Below, one piece after another: positions 5,079-36,554 of a stretch of DNA of 64,000 nt (positions are counted from its first letter, which is position 1; the number at the start of each line of letters is the position of its first letter). This DNA comes from a virus (Duplodnaviria; Heunggongvirae; Uroviricota; Caudoviricetes), in IMG/VR virus record IMGVR_UViG_2563366977_000001, positions 1 through 64,000 of that record. The stretch is one strand, 5' to 3'. The notes below the pieces were generated by a model. That model saw only the letters and a program-made list of their open reading frames with translations. It did not search any database and had not been told where the DNA came from. Made by a program: the position numbers and the translations under genes.

Positions 5079-8000
5079 TTAATCCTCCAGTAATTTGTCA
5101 AGAGATGGGTCATTGATAGTCGTGCTGGCACGCTGACGAGGTTGTGGTTGTGATGTGTTCACAACTTTGTCCTGATCGCCTTTGCGGTTGTCTTTGCTTA
5201 CGCCAAGAATCTCTTTAAGAACGGAATAAACGTTCTCCAGTGCTTTCAACATAGCCGGATCGTTATTTGCGGTATCTGTTGTTAGCATCTGCCTTATTCC
5301 GCTTCGTGCGAGGTCCGTGACGGTTGGTAGCTGAGGAGGCATTGCAAGGAACGGTTCTTTAGCAGCCACGCCCGAAGCAAACAGGCTTTGATTGATTGCG
5401 CCAGTCGTGTCCCTGATCGTATCCGCCGTTTTCTGTATGCCACCATTCAGCCAACCGCCAACACTCCTTGTTAACGGACTAATAGCGCGAGCAACATCGG
5501 TATTCTGTCCAGAGGACTGCAATACAAAGTCATTTAACATTCCGGTGCTATCAATACCGCCCACAAGTCGCGAGAGGTTATCTCCAACGGCGGGGAGGAC
5601 GGCGGAGCCTACCTGGTTAAGCCCTGACACAGTTGAATCAAATAGCGAGCCAAAGAAGCCCCTGTCCTCACCTTCAACCACCTTGTAGCCGTTGTCGTAA
5701 ATCTGCACACCCGCCGGTGTCGATGTGGCACGCTTCTCGCTGATGGTTGCCGGACTCTCCGGAAGCAGGTCAATGGTTTCTGTATCGCGGTTAACTTTGC
5801 GCTTTTGCTGTATAGCCGTAGTGATATCGGCGATCTGTTCCGCCTTCTGGAAACTAAAGTTTTTGCCCGTTGCTCTGGATGTTTTTTCAACAAGGAACTT
5901 ATCCAATTGCTTGGCTTTTGCTGCTAACGAGGACATCTCTTCCGGAGAACTGACAGGGCCGAGATTTAGCCCCATATTCGGATCTCCCCCAACTATCCCG
6001 GCGATGACGCCCCCAACACCGGCTGCACTCATTAACCGCTCCGTCAATCCGGCTGCGGCGGAAGAATTGCCACTAGCTTTCGCGTGGCTGATCGCTTGGG
6101 CATTTTCCTGTTGAGCTGCCTTCGGTTTTTTAGCTGCCTGTGCGTGTTGAACCACGTCAGTAGGGCTAGGCATTACAGCCTGGGCTACGCTTGACGCAGG
6201 AATAGCAGAAGATGAGCCGTTGGCGTATTTGACTTTGCTACCGACACTATATTGGGAGTTGCGAGCGATTAGAGGACCGCCCTTTTCCTTCTGGATTTTA
6301 TTAATGTGTTCCAGCGTTTCATCATTGAATTGCCCTTCCCAACGCCCAGTTTTAGCGTTGAATGAACCAAGAGCTGTTTTGATGAAATTGTTGTTAACCG
6401 CCGGGTTACCCCCCTCCTTCGTCGCAATAGCGCGAACAAGGTGCGTCATAACTTCAGGGTTGCTAACGTCTATTTTATCGTTGGGGGACACCCCTAGATA
6501 TTTGCTGACGTTTTCAATGTACTGATTGGTGTTGTTCTCTGTTGGTGGTGCCCATTTTGAAATGATGCTGGATACTGTTTGCAGCTTCTGATACCCGGCG
6601 GCAGCACTTGTACCGTTGTAATAACTCGATACCTGGTTTGCCAATGCCCGAATCCCTTCTTCGGGCGTATTAAACCGCGCAAAACGCTGTTCGCCTTTCG
6701 CGTTCGGCGCTTCCAGTACCGCCCCCTCCTGATTTGCAAAAACCAGGTTCCCCAGGTTGTTATTCCGGTAATTCCTGTTCTTGGCGTTGCTTCCGCCTAT
6801 ATTCAGATCAGCCGTTATTGTATTTTTTTCAGGCGCTTTAAATTCGTCTGGCGATTTGTAGCCGTGTTCACCCACGCCATCCTCACCTCTGCGCCCGCCC
6901 TGTAGCTGTCGGGCCAGATCATTAATTGCGGCTACCGTTTGCTTGGTGCCATCTTCAACGGCTTTCTTAACCTGCGCAGTGCCTTCGCTGCTTGATGAGA
7001 ACGATTCTTTTAGGCTGCTGAATGCGTTCTTCGACGCGTCGATAGAACTATTTATGCCGCGAGCGATATTGCTGGTATCAAGACTCTGAAGTTTTTGTCC
7101 GACACCTTCAAAGCCTAGCGCGGACATCCCCTCGCCAATGAGGTTAGCCGCTCCCGTCACCAGACCGCCCATATCCAGGACGTTAGCAGCGGCGTAGGCG
7201 CTCTTTTGCTGTGTTGTAACGTCCTGCCCTTCCTTCAGGTTATAAGTCGCCCTCTGCGCTTCTGTGTCGCTGTAGCCGTCTACGGCATCATAACCAACCA
7301 TAGCCACCTGGCCGATGACTGGAATCGCCCTGAATCCGGCCCTTGCGGCAACACCTCCGGCAGCTTTGAGAGCCACTTTTCCAGCTTCTTTTTTCGCGAT
7401 GTTTTCACCAGTGGCAACGGCAACCTTACCCGCCTCTTTCCTGGTAAGGCTTTCCCCAGCGGAAGTTGCCGCTTTACCAGCGTCTTTCCCTGCCGCTCCA
7501 CCAGCCGCCGTTTTGGCTACGCTTTCTTCAGTGACCTTACCTGCTCTGGTTTTAACTGAAGATTTATCACCCGATGATTTTGGTGAGGTACTACCCTCGT
7601 TCCCACCAGCTTTTTTTGTCCGATTTTTTTCCTCGCCCGCACTGTTGTTTTTGCCTGGCTGATTTTTTTTCCCCTCTTTGCCTTCCTGACTCCTGCCCGT
7701 CTCAGTAGGTTTGCTGGTGTTTTTTCCCTTCTTGCCCTTGTTTTCTTTACTGTCTCCAGTGCGGCCCGTGTTGCCACCACGTGCACTGCTACGACCGCGT
7801 GTAGGGGATATTTTGGTACGTAATCTGCCACCGCCGAGGAGGTCGCTCAGTTTTAGCCCACTCTCCTGCGACTTTCGTAGCTTCCGGATCTCTTCGGATA
7901 CAGTTTCCAGCTCATCAATTATCTGGCTGTCGTTGCGTTGAAGAACTTTCGTTTGTTCTTCGATCGCACGCACAGATTTTTCTTTAACGGCTTCAGTAAA

Positions 8001-30258: not shown

Positions 30259-30561
30259 ATGAGCAAAAAGATTAACATAAAGAATTTCAGGGATGAGTGG
30301 CTTGATGATTTTTTTGAATTTTCAATACCACACAAAAAGATACCTTCTGATATTCAGATTACATTGTTGCGGAAGCTGGATATTATCAATGCTGCAACTA
30401 CTTGGAAGGACTTGAGATCACCACCAGGTAATCGGTATGAGGAATTGTCAGGGAAGCTAAACGGCTATTCATCAATAAGGGTGAATAAGCAATACAGGTT
30501 AATTTTTAAGTGGGTTAACGGAAAGGCCGAGGACTTGTATCTCGACCCTCACAAATACTAA
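30259..30561 (+). CDS. higB: HigB-family toxin (RelE/ParE superfamily, plasmid maintenance killer)
   Basis: 100 aa, pattern ...DLRSPPGNRYEELSG...SIRVNKQYRLIFKW...LDPHKY, followed by a VapI-type HigA gene. Confidence 0.65.
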   Translation: MSKKINIKNFRDEWLDDFFEFSIPHKKIPSDIQITLLRKLDIINAATTWKDLRSPPGNRYEELSGKLNGYSSIRVNKQYRLIFKWVNGKAEDLYLDPHKY

Positions 30562-30632
30562 AACAAATACCCGGCGGATGGGCCGGGTACTGACCAGAGT
30601 CCACTTAATACGCACGCTAGTAAGGGCAAAAA

Positions 30633-30971
30633 ATGAAACAGGCAACCAGAAAACCGACGACTGTAGGTGATATCCTGCTGTACGAATACCTGGAGCCGTT
30701 AGAGCTTAAGATCAACGAGTTAGCAGAAATACTTCATGTTCATCGTAACACCGTAAGTGCTCTTGTTAATAATAATCGTAAGCTAACGATGGATATGGCA
30801 TATCGCCTGGCAAAAGCATTCGATACTTCTGTAGATTTTTGGATTAATCTTCAGACCGCAGTAGACCTGTGGGAAGTCGAAAATGATATGCGCGTTCAGG
30901 AAGAGTTAAGTCGTATCAATACTGCTGAAAAATTTATTTCTCAGCGGAACCTGAATAAAAAAGCAGCCTGA
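30633..30971 (+). CDS. higA: HigA antitoxin (XRE helix-turn-helix, VapI-type)
   Basis: VGDILLYEYLEPLELKINELAEILHVHRNTVSALVNN...AYRLAKAFDTSVDFWINLQ, the characteristic HigA HTH. Confidence 0.7.
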   Translation: MKQATRKPTTVGDILLYEYLEPLELKINELAEILHVHRNTVSALVNNNRKLTMDMAYRLAKAFDTSVDFWINLQTAVDLWEVENDMRVQEELSRINTAEKFISQRNLNKKAA

Positions 30972-30987
30972 TATAGTAAAACACATA

Positions 30988-31018
30988 CAAAAAGCCCACT
31001 TAACAAGTGGGCTTTCCT
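30988..31018 (+). terminator. rho-independent terminator
   Basis: aaagcccacttaacaagtgggctttcctttgg. Confidence 0.55.
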
Positions 31019-31388
31019 TTGGAATTAATGAACATTAAACCTATCCGTACAGAACAAGATTATGAGGCCGCACTGCGTGAAGTCGAACCGATGTTCGATA
31101 ACGAACCGGAAATGAATACCCCGGAAGGTGATTTCTTTGAGGTCATGTGTCTTCTCATTGAGGAGTACGAGAAAAAACATTATTCCAATTGAGCCACCAT
31201 CACCTATTGAAGCCATTAAGTTCCGTATGGAACAGCAAGGGCTGACCGTGAAGGATCTGGAACCGGCTATTGGTAAATCAAATCGTGTTTACGAGGTGCT
31301 AAATGGGACACGAAATTTGACGTTACCTATGATTCGCCGTTTACATTCCCAGTTTGGCATTCCTCTTGAAAGCCTAGTTGGTGTTTAA
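31007..31388 (+). pseudogene. HigA-family antitoxin-like HTH protein interrupted by a +1 frameshift
   Basis: Two track ORFs (31007..31192 and 31128..31388) join into one family-typical protein (...EEYEKKHY|PIEPPSPIEAIKFRMEQQGLT...) if one T is removed from cattattcc near 31180. Confidence 0.55.
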
Positions 31389-31449
31389 GTTTGGCGGTCT
31401 GGATGACCGCTTTTACCAAAAGTAAAGTTAAGAAGGTTTGATTGTTTAT

Positions 31450-32187
31450 ATGAGCAAAGATTCATCATTAGAAAATAAAGATGAAAATATCACTGTCAAG
31501 AATACAATCGAAGAAGCCATTAGAGACAAGTTATTTAATAAGTTGTTTGCATATGTTGTGGTTTCTTTTTTTGTCGTTAACTGGCAGGATATTTTCATTT
31601 TATTTAAATCAAAGTACGATATATATACGACATTATCTATAGTATGGGTAGGTGATGAGTATAATATCCCCTTTTTGCCATCATTCATTTTGCCACCATT
31701 TGTAGCTCATTTTGTCATGCCATTTATATATGGCACTGTTGCGTCTGTTATTATACCTTATGTTACGTTGTTTATATCGAAAGCCACAGGTAGAAATTAT
31801 GCAAGGATACGATATCTTGATTATGAATTTGATTTGAAAGAGAAAGCCAAAATAGAAGATTTAATGTTTGATCTGCGTAGCAAAGAAAGCGCCAGATTAG
31901 ATTTGGATGCAGCAATAGAGGAGAGAATAAAATCATTAAGTGCAATCGACTCTAAGAACAAAGAGCTTCTGGACGACAGAGTTGCTTTGTTCGAAGGCAT
32001 AAAAGCGATAGTGGATGTATATACAGAAAAAAATAAAAGAATCTCCTCGCCTGAAGATTTTGTTGATTTATTAAAGGCTGTGGAAAGAACTGATTTTTAT
32101 AAGGATATTGGTTTGTCTGGCATAAATGATTTAATAGCTGATTTAAAGAATACTTACGAAGACATACTTAAACCCATGTCCGACTAA
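31450..32187 (+). CDS. membrane protein of unknown function (AT-rich cargo gene)
   Basis: Start MSKDSS; two to three transmembrane segments (FAYVVVSFFVVNWQDIFILF; FILPPFVAHFVMPFIYGTVASVIIPYVTLFI) then a charged, probably coiled-coil C-terminal domain. No family recognised. Confidence 0.45.
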   Translation: MSKDSSLENKDENITVKNTIEEAIRDKLFNKLFAYVVVSFFVVNWQDIFILFKSKYDIYTTLSIVWVGDEYNIPFLPSFILPPFVAHFVMPFIYGTVASVIIPYVTLFISKATGRNYARIRYLDYEFDLKEKAKIEDLMFDLRSKESARLDLDAAIEERIKSLSAIDSKNKELLDDRVALFEGIKAIVDVYTEKNKRISSPEDFVDLLKAVERTDFYKDIGLSGINDLIADLKNTYEDILKPMSD

Positions 32188-32280
32188 CGCTTAAAAGGCG
32201 GATTTTCCGCCTTGCTTTGATGACTTTGATGTAAAACATTTTTTCAGCTATTTGAACACCATGATGGTGTTATTCGTGAT

Positions 32281-32760
32281 TTGTCATTTCTTGATGCTCA
32301 TCAGGCTGTGTTTGTTCAGCAACAAGAAGGAAAGCAACCGATAGAGTATCGCTTTTGGGTTACGTACTCTTTTCACTGCTTCACAAAAGACTATGCACAC
32401 CAGACTGAGGAAGAGAAACTGGCGTTAATGTACCACGCCCCTAAAGAGTCTCGTCCATTTTGTGAGCGTCGCTATAATCTTGCCAAACTTCACTTAAAAG
32501 AGGCAATTCTGTCATTGTCGGAAGGTAAGGTGATCCATGCCGGATACGGAAGCTATGCCGTTATTGAGGTAAATATTGGGGAGGGTAACAAGGAGTATTA
32601 TTTTGTTGCGTTTAAGGCTTTCAGGGAAAAGAAAAAGTTGCGGTTACACATCACTAGCGCCTACCCGGTATCAGAAAAACCAAATGGCAGGTCAGTGAAG
32701 TTTTTCGCAATCGCATACAATCTGTTAAGGAACAAACCGCTTCCTAAGCCACCAAAATAA
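32281..32760 (+). CDS. hypothetical soluble protein (AT-rich cargo gene)
   Basis: 159 aa, no recognisable motif; co-oriented with the membrane gene and followed by a terminator. Confidence 0.4.
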   Translation: MSFLDAHQAVFVQQQEGKQPIEYRFWVTYSFHCFTKDYAHQTEEEKLALMYHAPKESRPFCERRYNLAKLHLKEAILSLSEGKVIHAGYGSYAVIEVNIGEGNKEYYFVAFKAFREKKKLRLHITSAYPVSEKPNGRSVKFFAIAYNLLRNKPLPKPPK

Positions 32761-32985: not shown

Positions 32986-34191
32986 TTATACATTTTTTAC
33001 GTTGTTCTTCACATACGCCATGAACATCTTTTCGGCTTGTGCTGGTGGTGTTCCTGCCATAACAAGCGCGTCAATGAACGCCTGCTTCTTCAGTGCGAAC
33101 TGGTCAGCAAGACGTTGCTGAAGTTCCTTGTTTTTCTGCTTCTCCCGTTGCAAAGCAGCTTCTTTTGCCGCTGCCCGTTTTTTCTGTGCGTCGGATAACT
33201 TTCTGGCCCTCGTCAGTTGGTCGCGCAGCTTGTCGATCTTACCGTTGTCCTTTGCCAGTTTTGAGCTTAAAGCGGCCTGGCGTTTCTGATAGAGCTTCCA
33301 TTCACGTTTAGCTGCCTCAACATTCGTTTTGCTGCTACGGTTTCGATTGAACGCCTTCTCGTCTTCTTTTGTGAAGTGTTTTGTCGTGCGGCGGCGATCG
33401 TCACCAAAGGCAACTTGCGTTGCAGCTTTTTGCAGGGCGCGAGCAATACTCATCTGCCAACTGGCAGACTGTAGTCGTGTCATTGAGTGGATCACATGTT
33501 TACAGGCGACGCCTTGCAGCTTAGGGTTGCGAACTTTTGGATAGGCGTATTCTTTTGGCGGGGCCAGGGCAAAGTTACCCGCAGTGGCGATGTAGCGATA
33601 CCAGTATTGATGGCGACCGCAGTCACAATCGAAAGACACTCGCCCGGCACACAGTGATTTTGTGACTTTCAGGGCTGATTTATCGTCTTCTGCGATGTCA
33701 TCGACCATCTGATCCCATTCTTCAAAACGTACCCGGACAATGTGGTGCTGGTGAACGGATATATCGGACGCTTCCACGCGGATATTAATCACATTGTGAC
33801 GAAGAGATACGGGCGTAGCTCTTTTGATACCAGAACCGTCGTCTACGGCGTTATTTGCTCGCTTAATATCGATAGCCTGGCTGGACGCTACCAGTTGTGC
33901 GTATGTAATGCCAGCCGTCTTGCTGTCGTATTTTTCGCGTGCTTTGCTTCGCAGCTTTTCGAAGCCTTTCAGATCGTCACGCGTAAAGAACGTGCCGCCT
34001 TTCTTTTTCCCCAGCTTAAGAATGTCTTCGGCTGATTTATTCCTAAGCCTGCCCGGCGTGAGTGTCCTGTGCGCCTGGCGGCGTTTGCGGTTTTGCTCTT
34101 TCCTGATGAGTTCAAATACGCGTGTGAAATCCTTAGAGGACAGGCCGTCAGTGATATATCGCCCGTCCTGATTTTTCAGGAAGTCAGGCAT
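32986..34191 (-). CDS. basic protein with SWIM-like zinc-finger motif and coiled-coil C-terminus
   Basis: 401 aa; FDCDCGRHQYWYRYIATAGNFALAPP...VACKHVIH gives a CxC...CxH arrangement; K/R/Q-rich C-terminal third. Confidence 0.4.
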   Translation of the reverse strand: MPDFLKNQDGRYITDGLSSKDFTRVFELIRKEQNRKRRQAHRTLTPGRLRNKSAEDILKLGKKKGGTFFTRDDLKGFEKLRSKAREKYDSKTAGITYAQLVASSQAIDIKRANNAVDDGSGIKRATPVSLRHNVINIRVEASDISVHQHHIVRVRFEEWDQMVDDIAEDDKSALKVTKSLCAGRVSFDCDCGRHQYWYRYIATAGNFALAPPKEYAYPKVRNPKLQGVACKHVIHSMTRLQSASWQMSIARALQKAATQVAFGDDRRRTTKHFTKEDEKAFNRNRSSKTNVEAAKREWKLYQKRQAALSSKLAKDNGKIDKLRDQLTRARKLSDAQKKRAAAKEAALQREKQKNKELQQRLADQFALKKQAFIDALVMAGTPPAQAEKMFMAYVKNNVKNV

Positions 34192-34513
34192 TTTCTATCT
34201 CCGGTGCCGAGCCAGCGTAATCGCGAATCTTGTTTCTTAGCCATGCTGCGTCAGGAAGAGTTAACGTTGTCCCTACCGGCATTTCTTCCATTTCTGACTC
34301 ATGGCCCACCAGCACGCGAAATACCCAGCGCAAATCAGCGTTGCCATAGGCGCGATAGGCCGCCAGGTCTGAGCGATAAACCTCATCAATTTTTATCGTG
34401 TACTGGAAATTATCGGAGTGATACTCCGATACCCGCTTGATCATCTCCTGATGGAATAGTGCGCGCAGCACATCGTCTTCAATGCATCGATCGTCGAGCC
34501 TGCTGTAACTCAT
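34184..34513 (-). CDS. hypothetical protein
   Basis: 109 aa; 8-nt overlap with the start of the SWIM-like gene suggests translational coupling. Confidence 0.35.
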   Translation of the reverse strand: MSYSRLDDRCIEDDVLRALFHQEMIKRVSEYHSDNFQYTIKIDEVYRSDLAAYRAYGNADLRWVFRVLVGHESEMEEMPVGTTLTLPDAAWLRNKIRDYAGSAPEIENA

Positions 34514-34605
34514 AACAGTTCCTCACAGTCATAACCTGGGGGGAACTGTATGCAGGGTGTGAAATGCGAGAAAGCAGCGTCACCTTGCCTGGTGACGCTG
34601 TGAAA

Positions 34606-34887
34606 TTATGCGTGTGAAAATAATGGACGGATGTTTGGGCGAGCGGTTTGCGAAGCAACCCAAAGCTCATACTGGGATTGCATACCGGTCCACATTTCGG
34701 CACTGGTTCCAAGAGCGGACTCCAGACGAAGTGCCATATCAGCGGAAATACCTGTTTTTTCGTTCAAAATTCGGGAAAGTGCCGTGCGAGTAATGCCTAA
34801 TGCAGCAGCGGTGTCTGTGACTGATATGTCTCCCAAATATTCACGAAGAACCGCGCCTGGATGCGCGGGATTATGCATACGACTCAT
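34606..34887 (-). CDS. HigA-type antitoxin-like XRE HTH protein (VapI-type), orphan
   Basis: [18 protein letters not shown]...[38 protein letters not shown]. Confidence 0.6.
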
Positions 34888-35183
34888 ATGTGGAAAGCAA
34901 CCCGTTTACCGGTTGGCAATTCAACGTCCAGACTCAACTTCCCACCCATAGCCTCAACGTAACGTTTAAGCGTTGCCACTTTCAAGTCATTGCCTCGTTG
35001 TTCAAGTTTTGTGATGGCTGGTTGACTAATTCCCATCGCATCGGCAACTGTTTTTTGTGATAACTGAAGCTCCTCTCTCAACATCTGCAATCCGACTTCC
35101 AGAATCATTTCATCAGCCTGCTCTTTGATACGAGCTTGGCTTTCAGGGGATTGCGCAGCAATAACTTCTCTTAGAGTTCTCAT
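34884..35183 (-). CDS. XRE-family antitoxin (HigA2-like) paired with the Gp49-like toxin
   Basis: 99 aa HTH protein ([43 protein letters not shown]) overlapping the toxin gene end. Confidence 0.55.
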
Positions 35184-35530
35184 TATTTTTTCTCAAGTTC
35201 TGCAAGATGGTTGGAAAATTCGTCGTCTGCAATCCGTATCATTCTTTCGTAGAACTTTTTATCGTTACTTTTATCTCCGGCGCACAGGATTATGGCTTGC
35301 CTTACCGGATCAAATGCGAAGAATGCTCTGATAGGGCGACCAGCGTACTGAATCCGTAACTCCTTCATGTTTTTATGGCGTGAGCCTTTAACTGTGTCGG
35401 CATATGGCCTTGATAATGAAGGGCCATATGTTTCCAGATTGATCAGGTCAACCAGGATTTTTTCTTTTAATGCAGGTTCCTGTTCCTGGAACCATTCATC
35501 AAAAATTTTTCCAAAATAAATTTGCCACAT
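35183..35530 (-). CDS. RelE/ParE-superfamily toxin, phage Gp49-like (HigB2-like)
   Basis: 115 aa; I recognise the pattern of Gp49-like addiction-module killers; first gene behind a perfect palindromic operator. Confidence 0.55.
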   Translation of the reverse strand: MWQIYFGKIFDEWFQEQEPALKEKILVDLINLETYGPSLSRPYADTVKGSRHKNMKELRIQYAGRPIRAFFAFDPVRQAIILCAGDKSNDKKFYERMIRIADDEFSNHLAELEKK

Positions 35531-35551
35531 AGTTATTCAAAATCCTTTTTA

Positions 35552-35603
35552 ATAAACTACATGTTATAAACTACAGGTTATAGCATATAACCTGTAGTTT
35601 ATA
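35552..35603. promoter_or_regulatory. operator: 17-bp-arm perfect palindrome plus one extra direct half-site, upstream of the toxin-antitoxin operon
   Basis: ataaactaca tgtt ATAAACTACAGGTTATA gca TATAACCTGTAGTTTAT. Confidence 0.55.
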
Positions 35604-35635
35604 TTTTCAAGACCGTTTTTTATTCGATTTAGCAT

Positions 35636-36289
35636 TTAAAGTATCACGGTATCCTCATCAACTTCTGTCCCTGCCAGTGACTTTGGCTGGGAGGCGGCTG
35701 CTTTAACCTTCTCATGCCCAATAATGGACAGGAACGAGGCCATTATCCCTGCTTTGTTTTCTTTCTCTACCGATCCAGTCATTTGCTTCAGGTAATCCGC
35801 GCTGGCAACATTGTGGTATACCGTTGCATAGCAGCACAGAATCATCAGGATGTGCTCTGGTCGGATATCTTGCCAGTTAACTCGATAAACCTCTTCACCG
35901 TTGCCGTTGTATTCGGTATCGACGATAGAGTCGGGGATCTCGAATGCCCCTTTGTTCTTGTCAGGCAGGGATAGCAGCCTTTGTAGTTTCAGCTCTCGGT
36001 ATCTCTCCATGCCGACAATGATCGCCGCTCTGCCGTCGGCGTGCCGTGTTTTTAATGTTACCTGGCTGGCACCTGTACCGGCTGAAATGGTTGGCGTGAT
36101 TTCGTCAACCAGCACCTTAAATTCACTTTTACGCAGCTCGGCAATTGCTGGTGGAATTTTTCGTTTTTGTTCAATAGCAGATGCTGGGAGGGGCTTTACT
36201 TTGTCAATTACAAGCGCACCGTCTTTCAGGACTGCCGTAGCCATCAGCGGCTTGTTAGTCGAAAGGCTGAATATTGCGATCTTTTGCAT
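35636..36289 (-). CDS. hypothetical protein
   Basis: Track ORF, 217 aa. Confidence 0.3.
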   Translation of the reverse strand: MQKIAIFSLSTNKPLMATAVLKDGALVIDKVKPLPASAIEQKRKIPPAIAELRKSEFKVLVDEITPTISAGTGASQVTLKTRHADGRAAIIVGMERYRELKLQRLLSLPDKNKGAFEIPDSIVDTEYNGNGEEVYRVNWQDIRPEHILMILCCYATVYHNVASADYLKQMTGSVEKENKAGIMASFLSIIGHEKVKAAASQPKSLAGTEVDEDTVIL

Positions 36290-36554
36290 GGCTTTTACTC
36301 CACGATAGCAGGCACAAAAAAAGGCCGCACATGGCGGCCTGCTTTGGCGTTATGACTCCCTACCGCGCATCGGCTGAAAGTTAGTCGTCAAAAGAACCTT
36401 CAACGGGAGCCGTTTGCGCAATGGATTTTGTCCAGATTGTGATTTCCAGAATAGTGTCAACAATTTTTTTGAATTTTTTATTCGCGCTGAATTTGGCCTA
36501 AGTCATTTTGGCGTAGATGTTTGCTTTTGTAACATAAAACTTCAGTTTGTTTAC

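Follow-up and report, generated by a model that had tools for sequence, protein, structure and literature searches.

In phage P1 (record NC_005856), genes 26 and 25 head the block 26-25-7-24-6-5, which is preceded by the late promoter LP26, and 'tail stability' is the remark attached to gene 25; a need for gene 25 in stable tails is known only from this remark and from PMC9024508. Cryo-electron microscopy (cryo-EM) has shown P1 gp26 to form a six-fold plug joining the wedges to the hub (PMC12810830; bioRxiv 10.1101/2025.07.21.665459), and the protein has been described as T4 gp53-like (bioRxiv 10.1101/2025.07.21.665459; PMC9024508). Gonzales et al. detected gp25 in P1 virions using liquid chromatography coupled to tandem mass spectrometry (LC-MS/MS) with two peptides only, corresponding to 8.4% coverage, obtained no HHpred match above 50%, and left both a structural protein and an assembly cofactor as readings (PMC9024508). 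P1 gp25 was neither modelled nor mentioned in the two P1 cryo-EM studies (PMC12810830; bioRxiv 10.1101/2025.07.21.665459). Here we describe the counterparts of genes 26 and 25 in a stretch of 64,000 nucleotides, referred to below as the window, which comprises positions 1 to 64,000 of IMG/VR virus record IMGVR_UViG_2563366977_000001, together with the toxin-antitoxin (TA) genes that lie beside them on the minus strand.

Two described TA systems are close to the one in the window. The HigB2/HigA2-type pairs of enterobacterial plasmids have the same toxin-first order, overlapping genes, and the same promoter and TATAA...TTATA operator units; unlike these pairs, the one in the window lies among phage late genes, with an additional higA cistron behind it. 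The classical higBA module of D6-like phage-plasmids (pEC361_3) has the same higA in the same place, whereas the window lacks the cognate higB and its promoter.

Megablast placed the segment in Escherichia phage D6, a P1-like phage-plasmid, and the window is a P1/D6-like phage-plasmid (plasmid-prophage) of Escherichia. The locus joins two unrelated things, the P1 tail genes 26 and 25 and a cargo TA unit, and it is very probably best explained as classical tail genes beside a mosaic TA cassette that replaced an older higB. The features, all on the minus strand, are as follows.

32986..34191, minus strand: gene 25 orthologue, 401 aa, pI 10.1 (phrog_1722, D6 orf74, P1 gp25 homology, AlphaFold2 (AF2) model)
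33496..33627, minus strand: codons of C189-x-C191...C230-K-H232, putative zinc knuckle, SWIM-like (family-wide conservation); C189/C191 codons at 33627-33619, C230/H232 codons at 33504-33496
34184..34513, minus strand: gene 26 orthologue, 109 aa, baseplate 'plug', T4 gp53-like (PDB 9ay5_S/9vzk, phrog_1269)
34515..34549, minus strand: imperfect hairpin over the gene 26 Shine-Dalgarno sequence GAGGAA (in backbone common to D6-like relatives)
34575..34600, minus strand: perfect 10-bp GC-rich hairpin, then CTTTCTC, terminator-like (cassette/backbone boundary)
34606..34887, minus strand: higA, 93 aa, leftover antitoxin, now third cistron (TIGR02607)
34884..35183, minus strand: XRE-family antitoxin, 99 aa, partner of the Gp49 toxin (HTH_3 and plasmid homologues)
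35183..35530, minus strand: Gp49/HigB2-type toxin of the RelE/ParE superfamily, 115 aa (PF05973, phrog_3445 'toxin')
35552..35610, minus strand: TA operon promoter and operator (palindrome, -35/-10, homologous modules)
35636..36289, minus strand: mat (maturation control) homologue, upstream backbone gene (D6 annotation, phrog_1837, locus survey)

Tail genes 26 and 25

The 401-aa protein matched phrog_1722 'tail protein' over residues 2-399 (E 5e-196), was 57% identical to P1 gp25 (tblastn, E 9e-113), and was 97% identical to D6 orf74, for which the annotation reads 'similar to P1 gene 25'. Its P1 orthologue is gene 25 ('tail stability'). The 109-aa protein matched the solved 'Gp26' chain (PDB 9ay5_S/9vzk) over residues 3-100 with an E-value of 2.4e-18, as well as phrog_1269 'baseplate wedge subunit' (E 1e-35), and the counterpart of its gene in D6 is described there as 'similar to P1 gene 26'. 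We identify the 109-aa protein as the baseplate plug gp26, and the two genes are the first two of the classical P1 late tail-morphogenesis operon. The initial annotation had been unable to assign the 401-aa protein to a phage function, and had stated that its proposal of a nucleic-acid-binding effector or regulator would be refuted if the protein belonged to the virion or replication proteins conserved in P1-like phages; genes 25 and 26 are conserved P1 tail genes, and on gene identity that proposal is refuted. A Pfam search of gp25 and gp26 returned no family above threshold.

Compared with P1 gp25 (YP_006549.1; PHROG 1722), the window protein has a similar length (401 vs 405 aa), the same place after gene 26 and the same CxC...CxH motif. 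Its C-terminal ~70 residues diverge, however, and the tblastn alignment reaches residues 1-334 only. Gene 26 likewise occupies the same position in both phages, although gp26 measures 109 aa in the window and 125 aa in P1. The translational coupling proposed for the 109-aa and 401-aa genes is real, in that they overlap by 8 nt (ATGCCTGA) in both the window and D6, whereas the two genes are 9 nt apart in P1. A further difference from the P1 block is that, in the window and in D6, a cargo island on the plus strand separates 26-25 from 7-24-6-5.

To place the pair in a wider context, we surveyed 80 related IMG/VR loci. Gene 26 was directly upstream of gene 25 in 77 of these and ~780 bp upstream in the other three; the spacer of ~780 bp splits the two genes only in L060-L062 (about 5220-6001). 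Gene 25 also lies directly downstream of gene 26 in P1 and D6. A TA unit was present between mat and gene 26 in only three of the 80 loci, and none of these units was that of the window.

These data bear directly on the earlier view that the 401-aa and 109-aa proteins form a nucleic-acid-binding effector or regulator functionally tied to the TA unit, a view that we now regard as highly improbable. It could draw on the strongly basic character of the 401-aa protein (pI 10.1), on its SWIM-pattern Cys/His motif, and on the proximity of its gene to the TA genes on the same strand. Against it stand the orthology of the pair to the P1 morphogenesis genes 25 and 26, the defined structural place of gp26 in the baseplate (PMC12810830), and the position of the TA cassette boundary upstream of gene 26. 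Moreover, the 26-25 pair is kept in 80/80 related loci, none with the window's TA and most without any TA at this spot, and we find no functional link between tail genes and TA unit. Searches of gp25 against NCBIfam and PADLOC gave noise only and no meaningful defence match.

Hence, the locus is ordinary and essentially already known: annotated P1-type tail genes beside a mosaic type II TA cassette. All five proteins occur verbatim in public Escherichia records under sensible names such as 'phage tail protein' and 'baseplate protein', and the identical gp25 sequence was found on 175 contigs. As a discovery, a set of classical tail genes and publicly recorded proteins carries little weight. Two modest novelties are left, the conserved zinc-finger-like motif of gp25 and, in the TA cassette, an architecture of clean toxin replacement.

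The Cys/His motif and the role of gp25

In the window protein the motif reads C189-x-C191-x38-C230-x-H232, and the corresponding residues of P1 gp25 are C192/C194/C233/H235. When 1.84 billion cluster representatives were searched with a profile, the gp25 family comprised 688 members at E <= 1e-3. The pattern CxC-x(36-44)-CxH was present in 141 of the 149 best cluster representatives, and the eight exceptions were short sequences (93-230 aa). It was invariant in 115 close homologues, and conservation within gp25 was highest in the region of the motif. In an alignment of 134 sequences, extending down to 22% identity, ten columns were invariant, including C189, C191, C230 and H232. The CxC...CxH motif reported in the initial annotation is therefore real and strongly conserved across the family.

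The AF2 model of gp25 (predicted local distance difference test (pLDDT) 81, predicted template modelling score (pTM) 0.71) shows a beta/alpha core together with a long helix at the C-terminus. C189 lies at the end of a strand, C230 and H232 lie at the start of helix 231-239, and the ~38 residues between the two halves of the motif include one helix. Judging from conservation and model, the Cys/His cluster most likely binds one zinc and would thereby staple the beta/alpha core.

The proposed likeness to SWIM fingers held in part. The CxCxnCxH signature is present, with a spacing of 36-44 residues across the family that exceeds the classical one; the classical range, reportedly given by Makarova et al. 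in 2002, is shorter. PF04434 (SWIM) did not match the window gp25 or its core at the gathering score of 19.6 bits. Distant gp25 members scored <=12.5 bits against this model; three of nine aligned, with E-values of 0.11-0.83, and these alignments covered only its C-terminal 14-15 positions. No precomputed Pfam domain was present in any of 120 gp25 homologues, and any resemblance to a solved SWIM protein (cf. ZSWIM8, PDB 9RWZ) was at most weak. The putative zinc site thus appears to be SWIM-like in pattern only. In the papers accessible to our search, we found nothing relevant on SWIM in phage tails and no mention of a gp25 zinc site.

The subthreshold, partial PF04434 alignments in three of nine distant members and the spacing beyond the classical range would also fit a different explanation, in which the CxC...CxH residues bind no zinc and are kept for disulfides, packing or an interaction surface, the SWIM likeness being coincidental. 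We consider this explanation improbable, and zinc binding remains the preferred reading of the cluster.

The initial annotation was also right about the basic C-terminus. The C-terminal third of gp25 (residues 263-401) has a pI of 10.4 and contains 36 K+R among 139 residues, and AF2 predicts long helices at 291-314, 318-378 and 383-400. Sequence and profile searches against PDB chains returned low-complexity or helical noise only, and a Foldseek search of the AF2 model against BFVD returned uncharacterised phage proteins only.

Since neither P1 virion model includes gp25 and only two virion peptides represent it, we infer that it acts mainly as a low-copy or transient factor in the assembly or stabilisation of the tail or baseplate. 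The basic helical arms and the ~60-residue C-terminal helix would then serve protein contacts and possibly DNA contacts. This reading is preferred over one in which gp25 is a true virion part, flexible or of low copy number, that was missed by cryo-EM averaging, for example within the lumen of the tail or inside the baseplate, alongside the tape-measure protein Sit, itself unresolved, or bound to the DNA end and ejected together with it. We regard the latter as a credible possibility of clearly lower probability. In its favour, gp25 reached the two-peptide threshold in purified P1 virions (PMC9024508), Sit and further flexible parts are unresolved in the P1 maps (PMC12810830), the protein is strongly basic with long predicted helices, and in Xanthomonas phage Rb1 a gp25 homologue is encoded just downstream of a Sit-like tape-measure/lysin gene. 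On the other hand, the coverage was just 8.4% and the authors themselves raise the cofactor possibility (PMC9024508), and P1 gp25 was built or named in neither of two independent virion models.

Distant members of the gp25 family with the motif CDC...CKH were observed in Xanthomonas phage Rb1 (L088, 6800-7879) and in L085 (363-1439). In both loci the gene lies between the genes for the portal and the Sit-like tape-measure/lysin on one side and the major capsid gene on the other. The label 'transcriptional regulator MvaT' on the Rb1 copy is apparently a mis-annotation. Given that distant homologues lie just upstream of the major capsid gene, gp25 was also considered as a scaffold or head protein; this idea was dropped because head and tail genes are intermingled in those loci and the annotation of P1 indicates tails. 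The neighbours of the distant homologues in L085 and Rb1 showed no similarity to the window gp26 and gp7 by phmmer, so that synteny beyond P1-like phages is not established.

As a low-copy or transient factor or otherwise, gp25 is among the last essential P1 morphogenesis proteins without an assigned role, and its invariant Cys3His cluster offers a concrete handle.

A mosaic toxin-antitoxin cassette

The three TA genes named in the initial annotation, a Gp49-like toxin, an XRE antitoxin and a second HigA, were confirmed by profile matches. The 115-aa toxin matched PF05973 (Gp49) with 76.9 bits (cutoff 23.9, E 1.3e-21) and was 81-83% identical to plasmid toxins, one of them named 'Putative toxin HigB2'. 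The 99-aa XRE protein matched HTH_3 (E 2e-9) and was 88% identical to the antitoxin encoded behind the homologous toxin gene on plasmids of C. koseri and E. coli. On these unrelated plasmids the Gp49/XRE pair forms a complete two-gene module with 81-88% identity, and it presumably stabilises the plasmid-prophage by post-segregational killing. The 93-aa HigA matched TIGR02607 with 96.6 bits (cutoff 47.7). A cognate RelE/ParE-type higB is absent from the position immediately upstream of the window higA, where Gp49 and XRE stand instead, while higB is present before higA in the relatives L002, L007, L024 and L025. The window HigA is an orphan antitoxin. Toxin and XRE genes overlap by 1 nt (TAATG), and XRE and higA genes by 4 nt (ATGA).

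Upstream of the toxin gene, the palindrome with an extra direct half-site is present as proposed, with perfect arms of 18 nt rather than 17 (35565-35582 and 35586-35603, separated by 3 nt). The third half-site is a 14-nt direct copy at 35552-35565 (93%). A perfect 18-nt inverted repeat in 64 kb is far beyond chance (about 64000 x 4^-18). A sigma-70-like promoter comprises the -35 element TTGAAA (35610-35605), a 17-nt spacer and the -10 element TATGCT (35587-35582), and this -10 element falls exactly at the palindrome centre. Homologous TA modules keep the same -35/-10 elements and 18-bp TATAA...TTATA units upstream. The arrangement supports the palindrome as a candidate autoregulatory operator for the XRE antitoxin, which presumably binds the palindrome, with the -10 element at its centre, and so represses the TA promoter.

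At the other end of the cassette, the hairpin reported to follow higA has a perfect 10-bp stem (34575-34584/34591-34600) and was confined to higA-bearing loci. Folding of the 111-nt leader gave z = -3.8, and backbone homology to cassette-free relatives restarts right after this hairpin. It is probably the TA terminator at the 3' end of the higA cassette and, in lysogens, would keep transcription from the constitutive TA promoter out of the tail genes. The imperfect hairpin at 34515-34549 (minus strand) has 14-nt arms, pairs the gene 26 Shine-Dalgarno sequence, and is conserved in D6-like relatives with or without a TA cassette. It may damp translation of read-through transcripts.

The origin of the cassette was traced by comparison with pEC361_3, which is 98.9% identical to the window over the common segment from gp25 to higA and in which higA is preceded by a RelE/ParE-type higB. 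The higA genes of the two are 98% identical and have the same location. In a pairwise alignment, near-identity extends through mat, is lost from the mat 3' end, and returns exactly at the higA ATG. The last ~60 nt of mat (35636-35700, minus strand) diverge sharply from pEC361_3 while the remainder of the gene is nearly identical, which places the left breakpoint of the TA swap inside mat. The swapped segment of the window contains the promoter, the Gp49 toxin and the XRE antitoxin. Very probably, an ancestor carried higB-higA between mat and gene 26, and in this lineage a self-contained Gp49(HigB2-like)/XRE cassette displaced the higBA promoter and higB, with the junction exactly at the higA start codon turning higA into a third cistron with an ATGA overlap. 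The 'double antitoxin' of the locus is therefore the mark of this exchange, in which promoter and toxin of the older module gave way to the incoming TA pair and its antitoxin stayed.

Across the 80 surveyed loci, the spot between mat and gene 26 takes several forms: mat abuts gene 26 in distant relatives, D6-like phages have a gap of ~330 bp, and three loci carry higBA (L007, L024, L025). This intergenic spot is a cargo hot spot. The D6 homology of the window stops at about 34577. By megablast, the Gp49/XRE segment had no match in PLSDB or complete E. coli genomes, and the exact XRE/higA junction was absent from IMG/VR and GTDB representative genomes. The order mat-Gp49-XRE-HigA-26-25 was found in eight of eight inspected E. 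coli draft contigs of ~90 kb, and an exact-protein look-up placed the toxin on 251 contigs. The composite arrangement is common in draft assemblies. Among eight composite loci there were 0-6 nt differences, and L092 was identical to the window across higA.

Anti-addiction by an orphan antitoxin has reportedly been described by Saavedra De Bast et al. in 2008 for the chromosomal ccd of Erwinia. The HigA retained in the window may likewise neutralise the HigB of competing higBA-bearing relatives, or it may be a mere passenger. That higA is a functionless passenger of the replacement, neither anti-addictive nor cross-protective, has in our view a little less than an even chance. The gene lacks its cognate toxin and its own promoter and operator, and the composite lineage is nearly clonal, so that an intact open reading frame (ORF) proves little. 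Conversely, the higA ORF is intact in 8/8 inspected contigs, and it is translationally coupled to the XRE gene via the ATGA overlap. The higA of the higBA-bearing L007 shows 29 nucleotide but only 3 amino-acid differences, which indicates that the HigA protein is under purifying selection in general, and higBA-bearing relatives, as possible targets of HigA, co-circulate in the same hosts. In either case, the mat/26 junction is a tidy natural example of TA turnover, with possible anti-addiction among competing phage-plasmids.

A broader interpretation combines both novelties: the gp25 family would represent an undescribed zinc-knuckle domain, a distant, insertion-bearing relative of SWIM, within an essential tail-morphogenesis protein not seen in two P1 virion structures, and Gp49-XRE-HigA could separately represent a natural toxin replacement with HigA as an anti-addiction weapon. 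We regard this combination as doubtful. If it were true, gp25 could act in the assembly or stabilisation of contractile tails as a factor of a new kind, or associate with DNA or the tape measure as a protein specific to P1-like myoviruses, and the retained orphan HigA could be a weapon between incompatible phage-plasmids.

Several points weigh against our explanation of the locus as tail genes beside a replaced TA cassette. When an LP26-derived motif was used to look for a late promoter of P1 type upstream of gene 26, the matches were at chance level and none fell in the region between higA and this gene, so that late transcription would have to cross the cassette and the terminator-like hairpin to reach 26 and 25. 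Since mat abuts gene 26 in distant relatives, a late transcript mat-26-25 is suggested. Family membership only is the ground on which toxicity, neutralisation and operator binding are attributed to the TA genes. The two gp25 virion peptides could mean a genuine low-copy structural protein. Finally, the variants of the composite cassette differ too little for a selection test on the orphan higA.

Neighbouring regions

Upstream of mat, a strong hairpin resembling an intrinsic terminator (7 bp, 6 GC, then T7) was observed at 36322-36340 on the minus strand, ~20-30 nt from the mat start. Its position leaves very little room for a mat promoter.

The plus-strand island that separates 26-25 from 7-24-6-5, as in D6 (orf70/orf71), extends over ~30259-32760. 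At 30259-30971 (plus strand) it contains a second complete TA pair, composed of a HigB-like toxin (100 aa) and a helix-turn-helix (HTH) antitoxin (112 aa). Hence, genes 26-25 are bracketed by two TA-bearing cargo spots. At 31007-31388 (plus strand), the counterpart of D6 orf72, which encodes an HTH regulator of 119 aa, is broken into overlapping ORFs of 61 and 86 aa as a result of a 1-nt insertion near 31183 relative to D6; the split points either to a pseudogene or to an error of sequencing. The protein encoded at 31438-32187 (plus strand) has 249 aa and hydrophobic stretches and belongs to phrog_8191 (function unknown). Lastly, a 159-aa ORF at 32281-32760 (plus strand) occupies the place where relatives have a YjaZ-family / 'stationary phase growth adaptation' gene.

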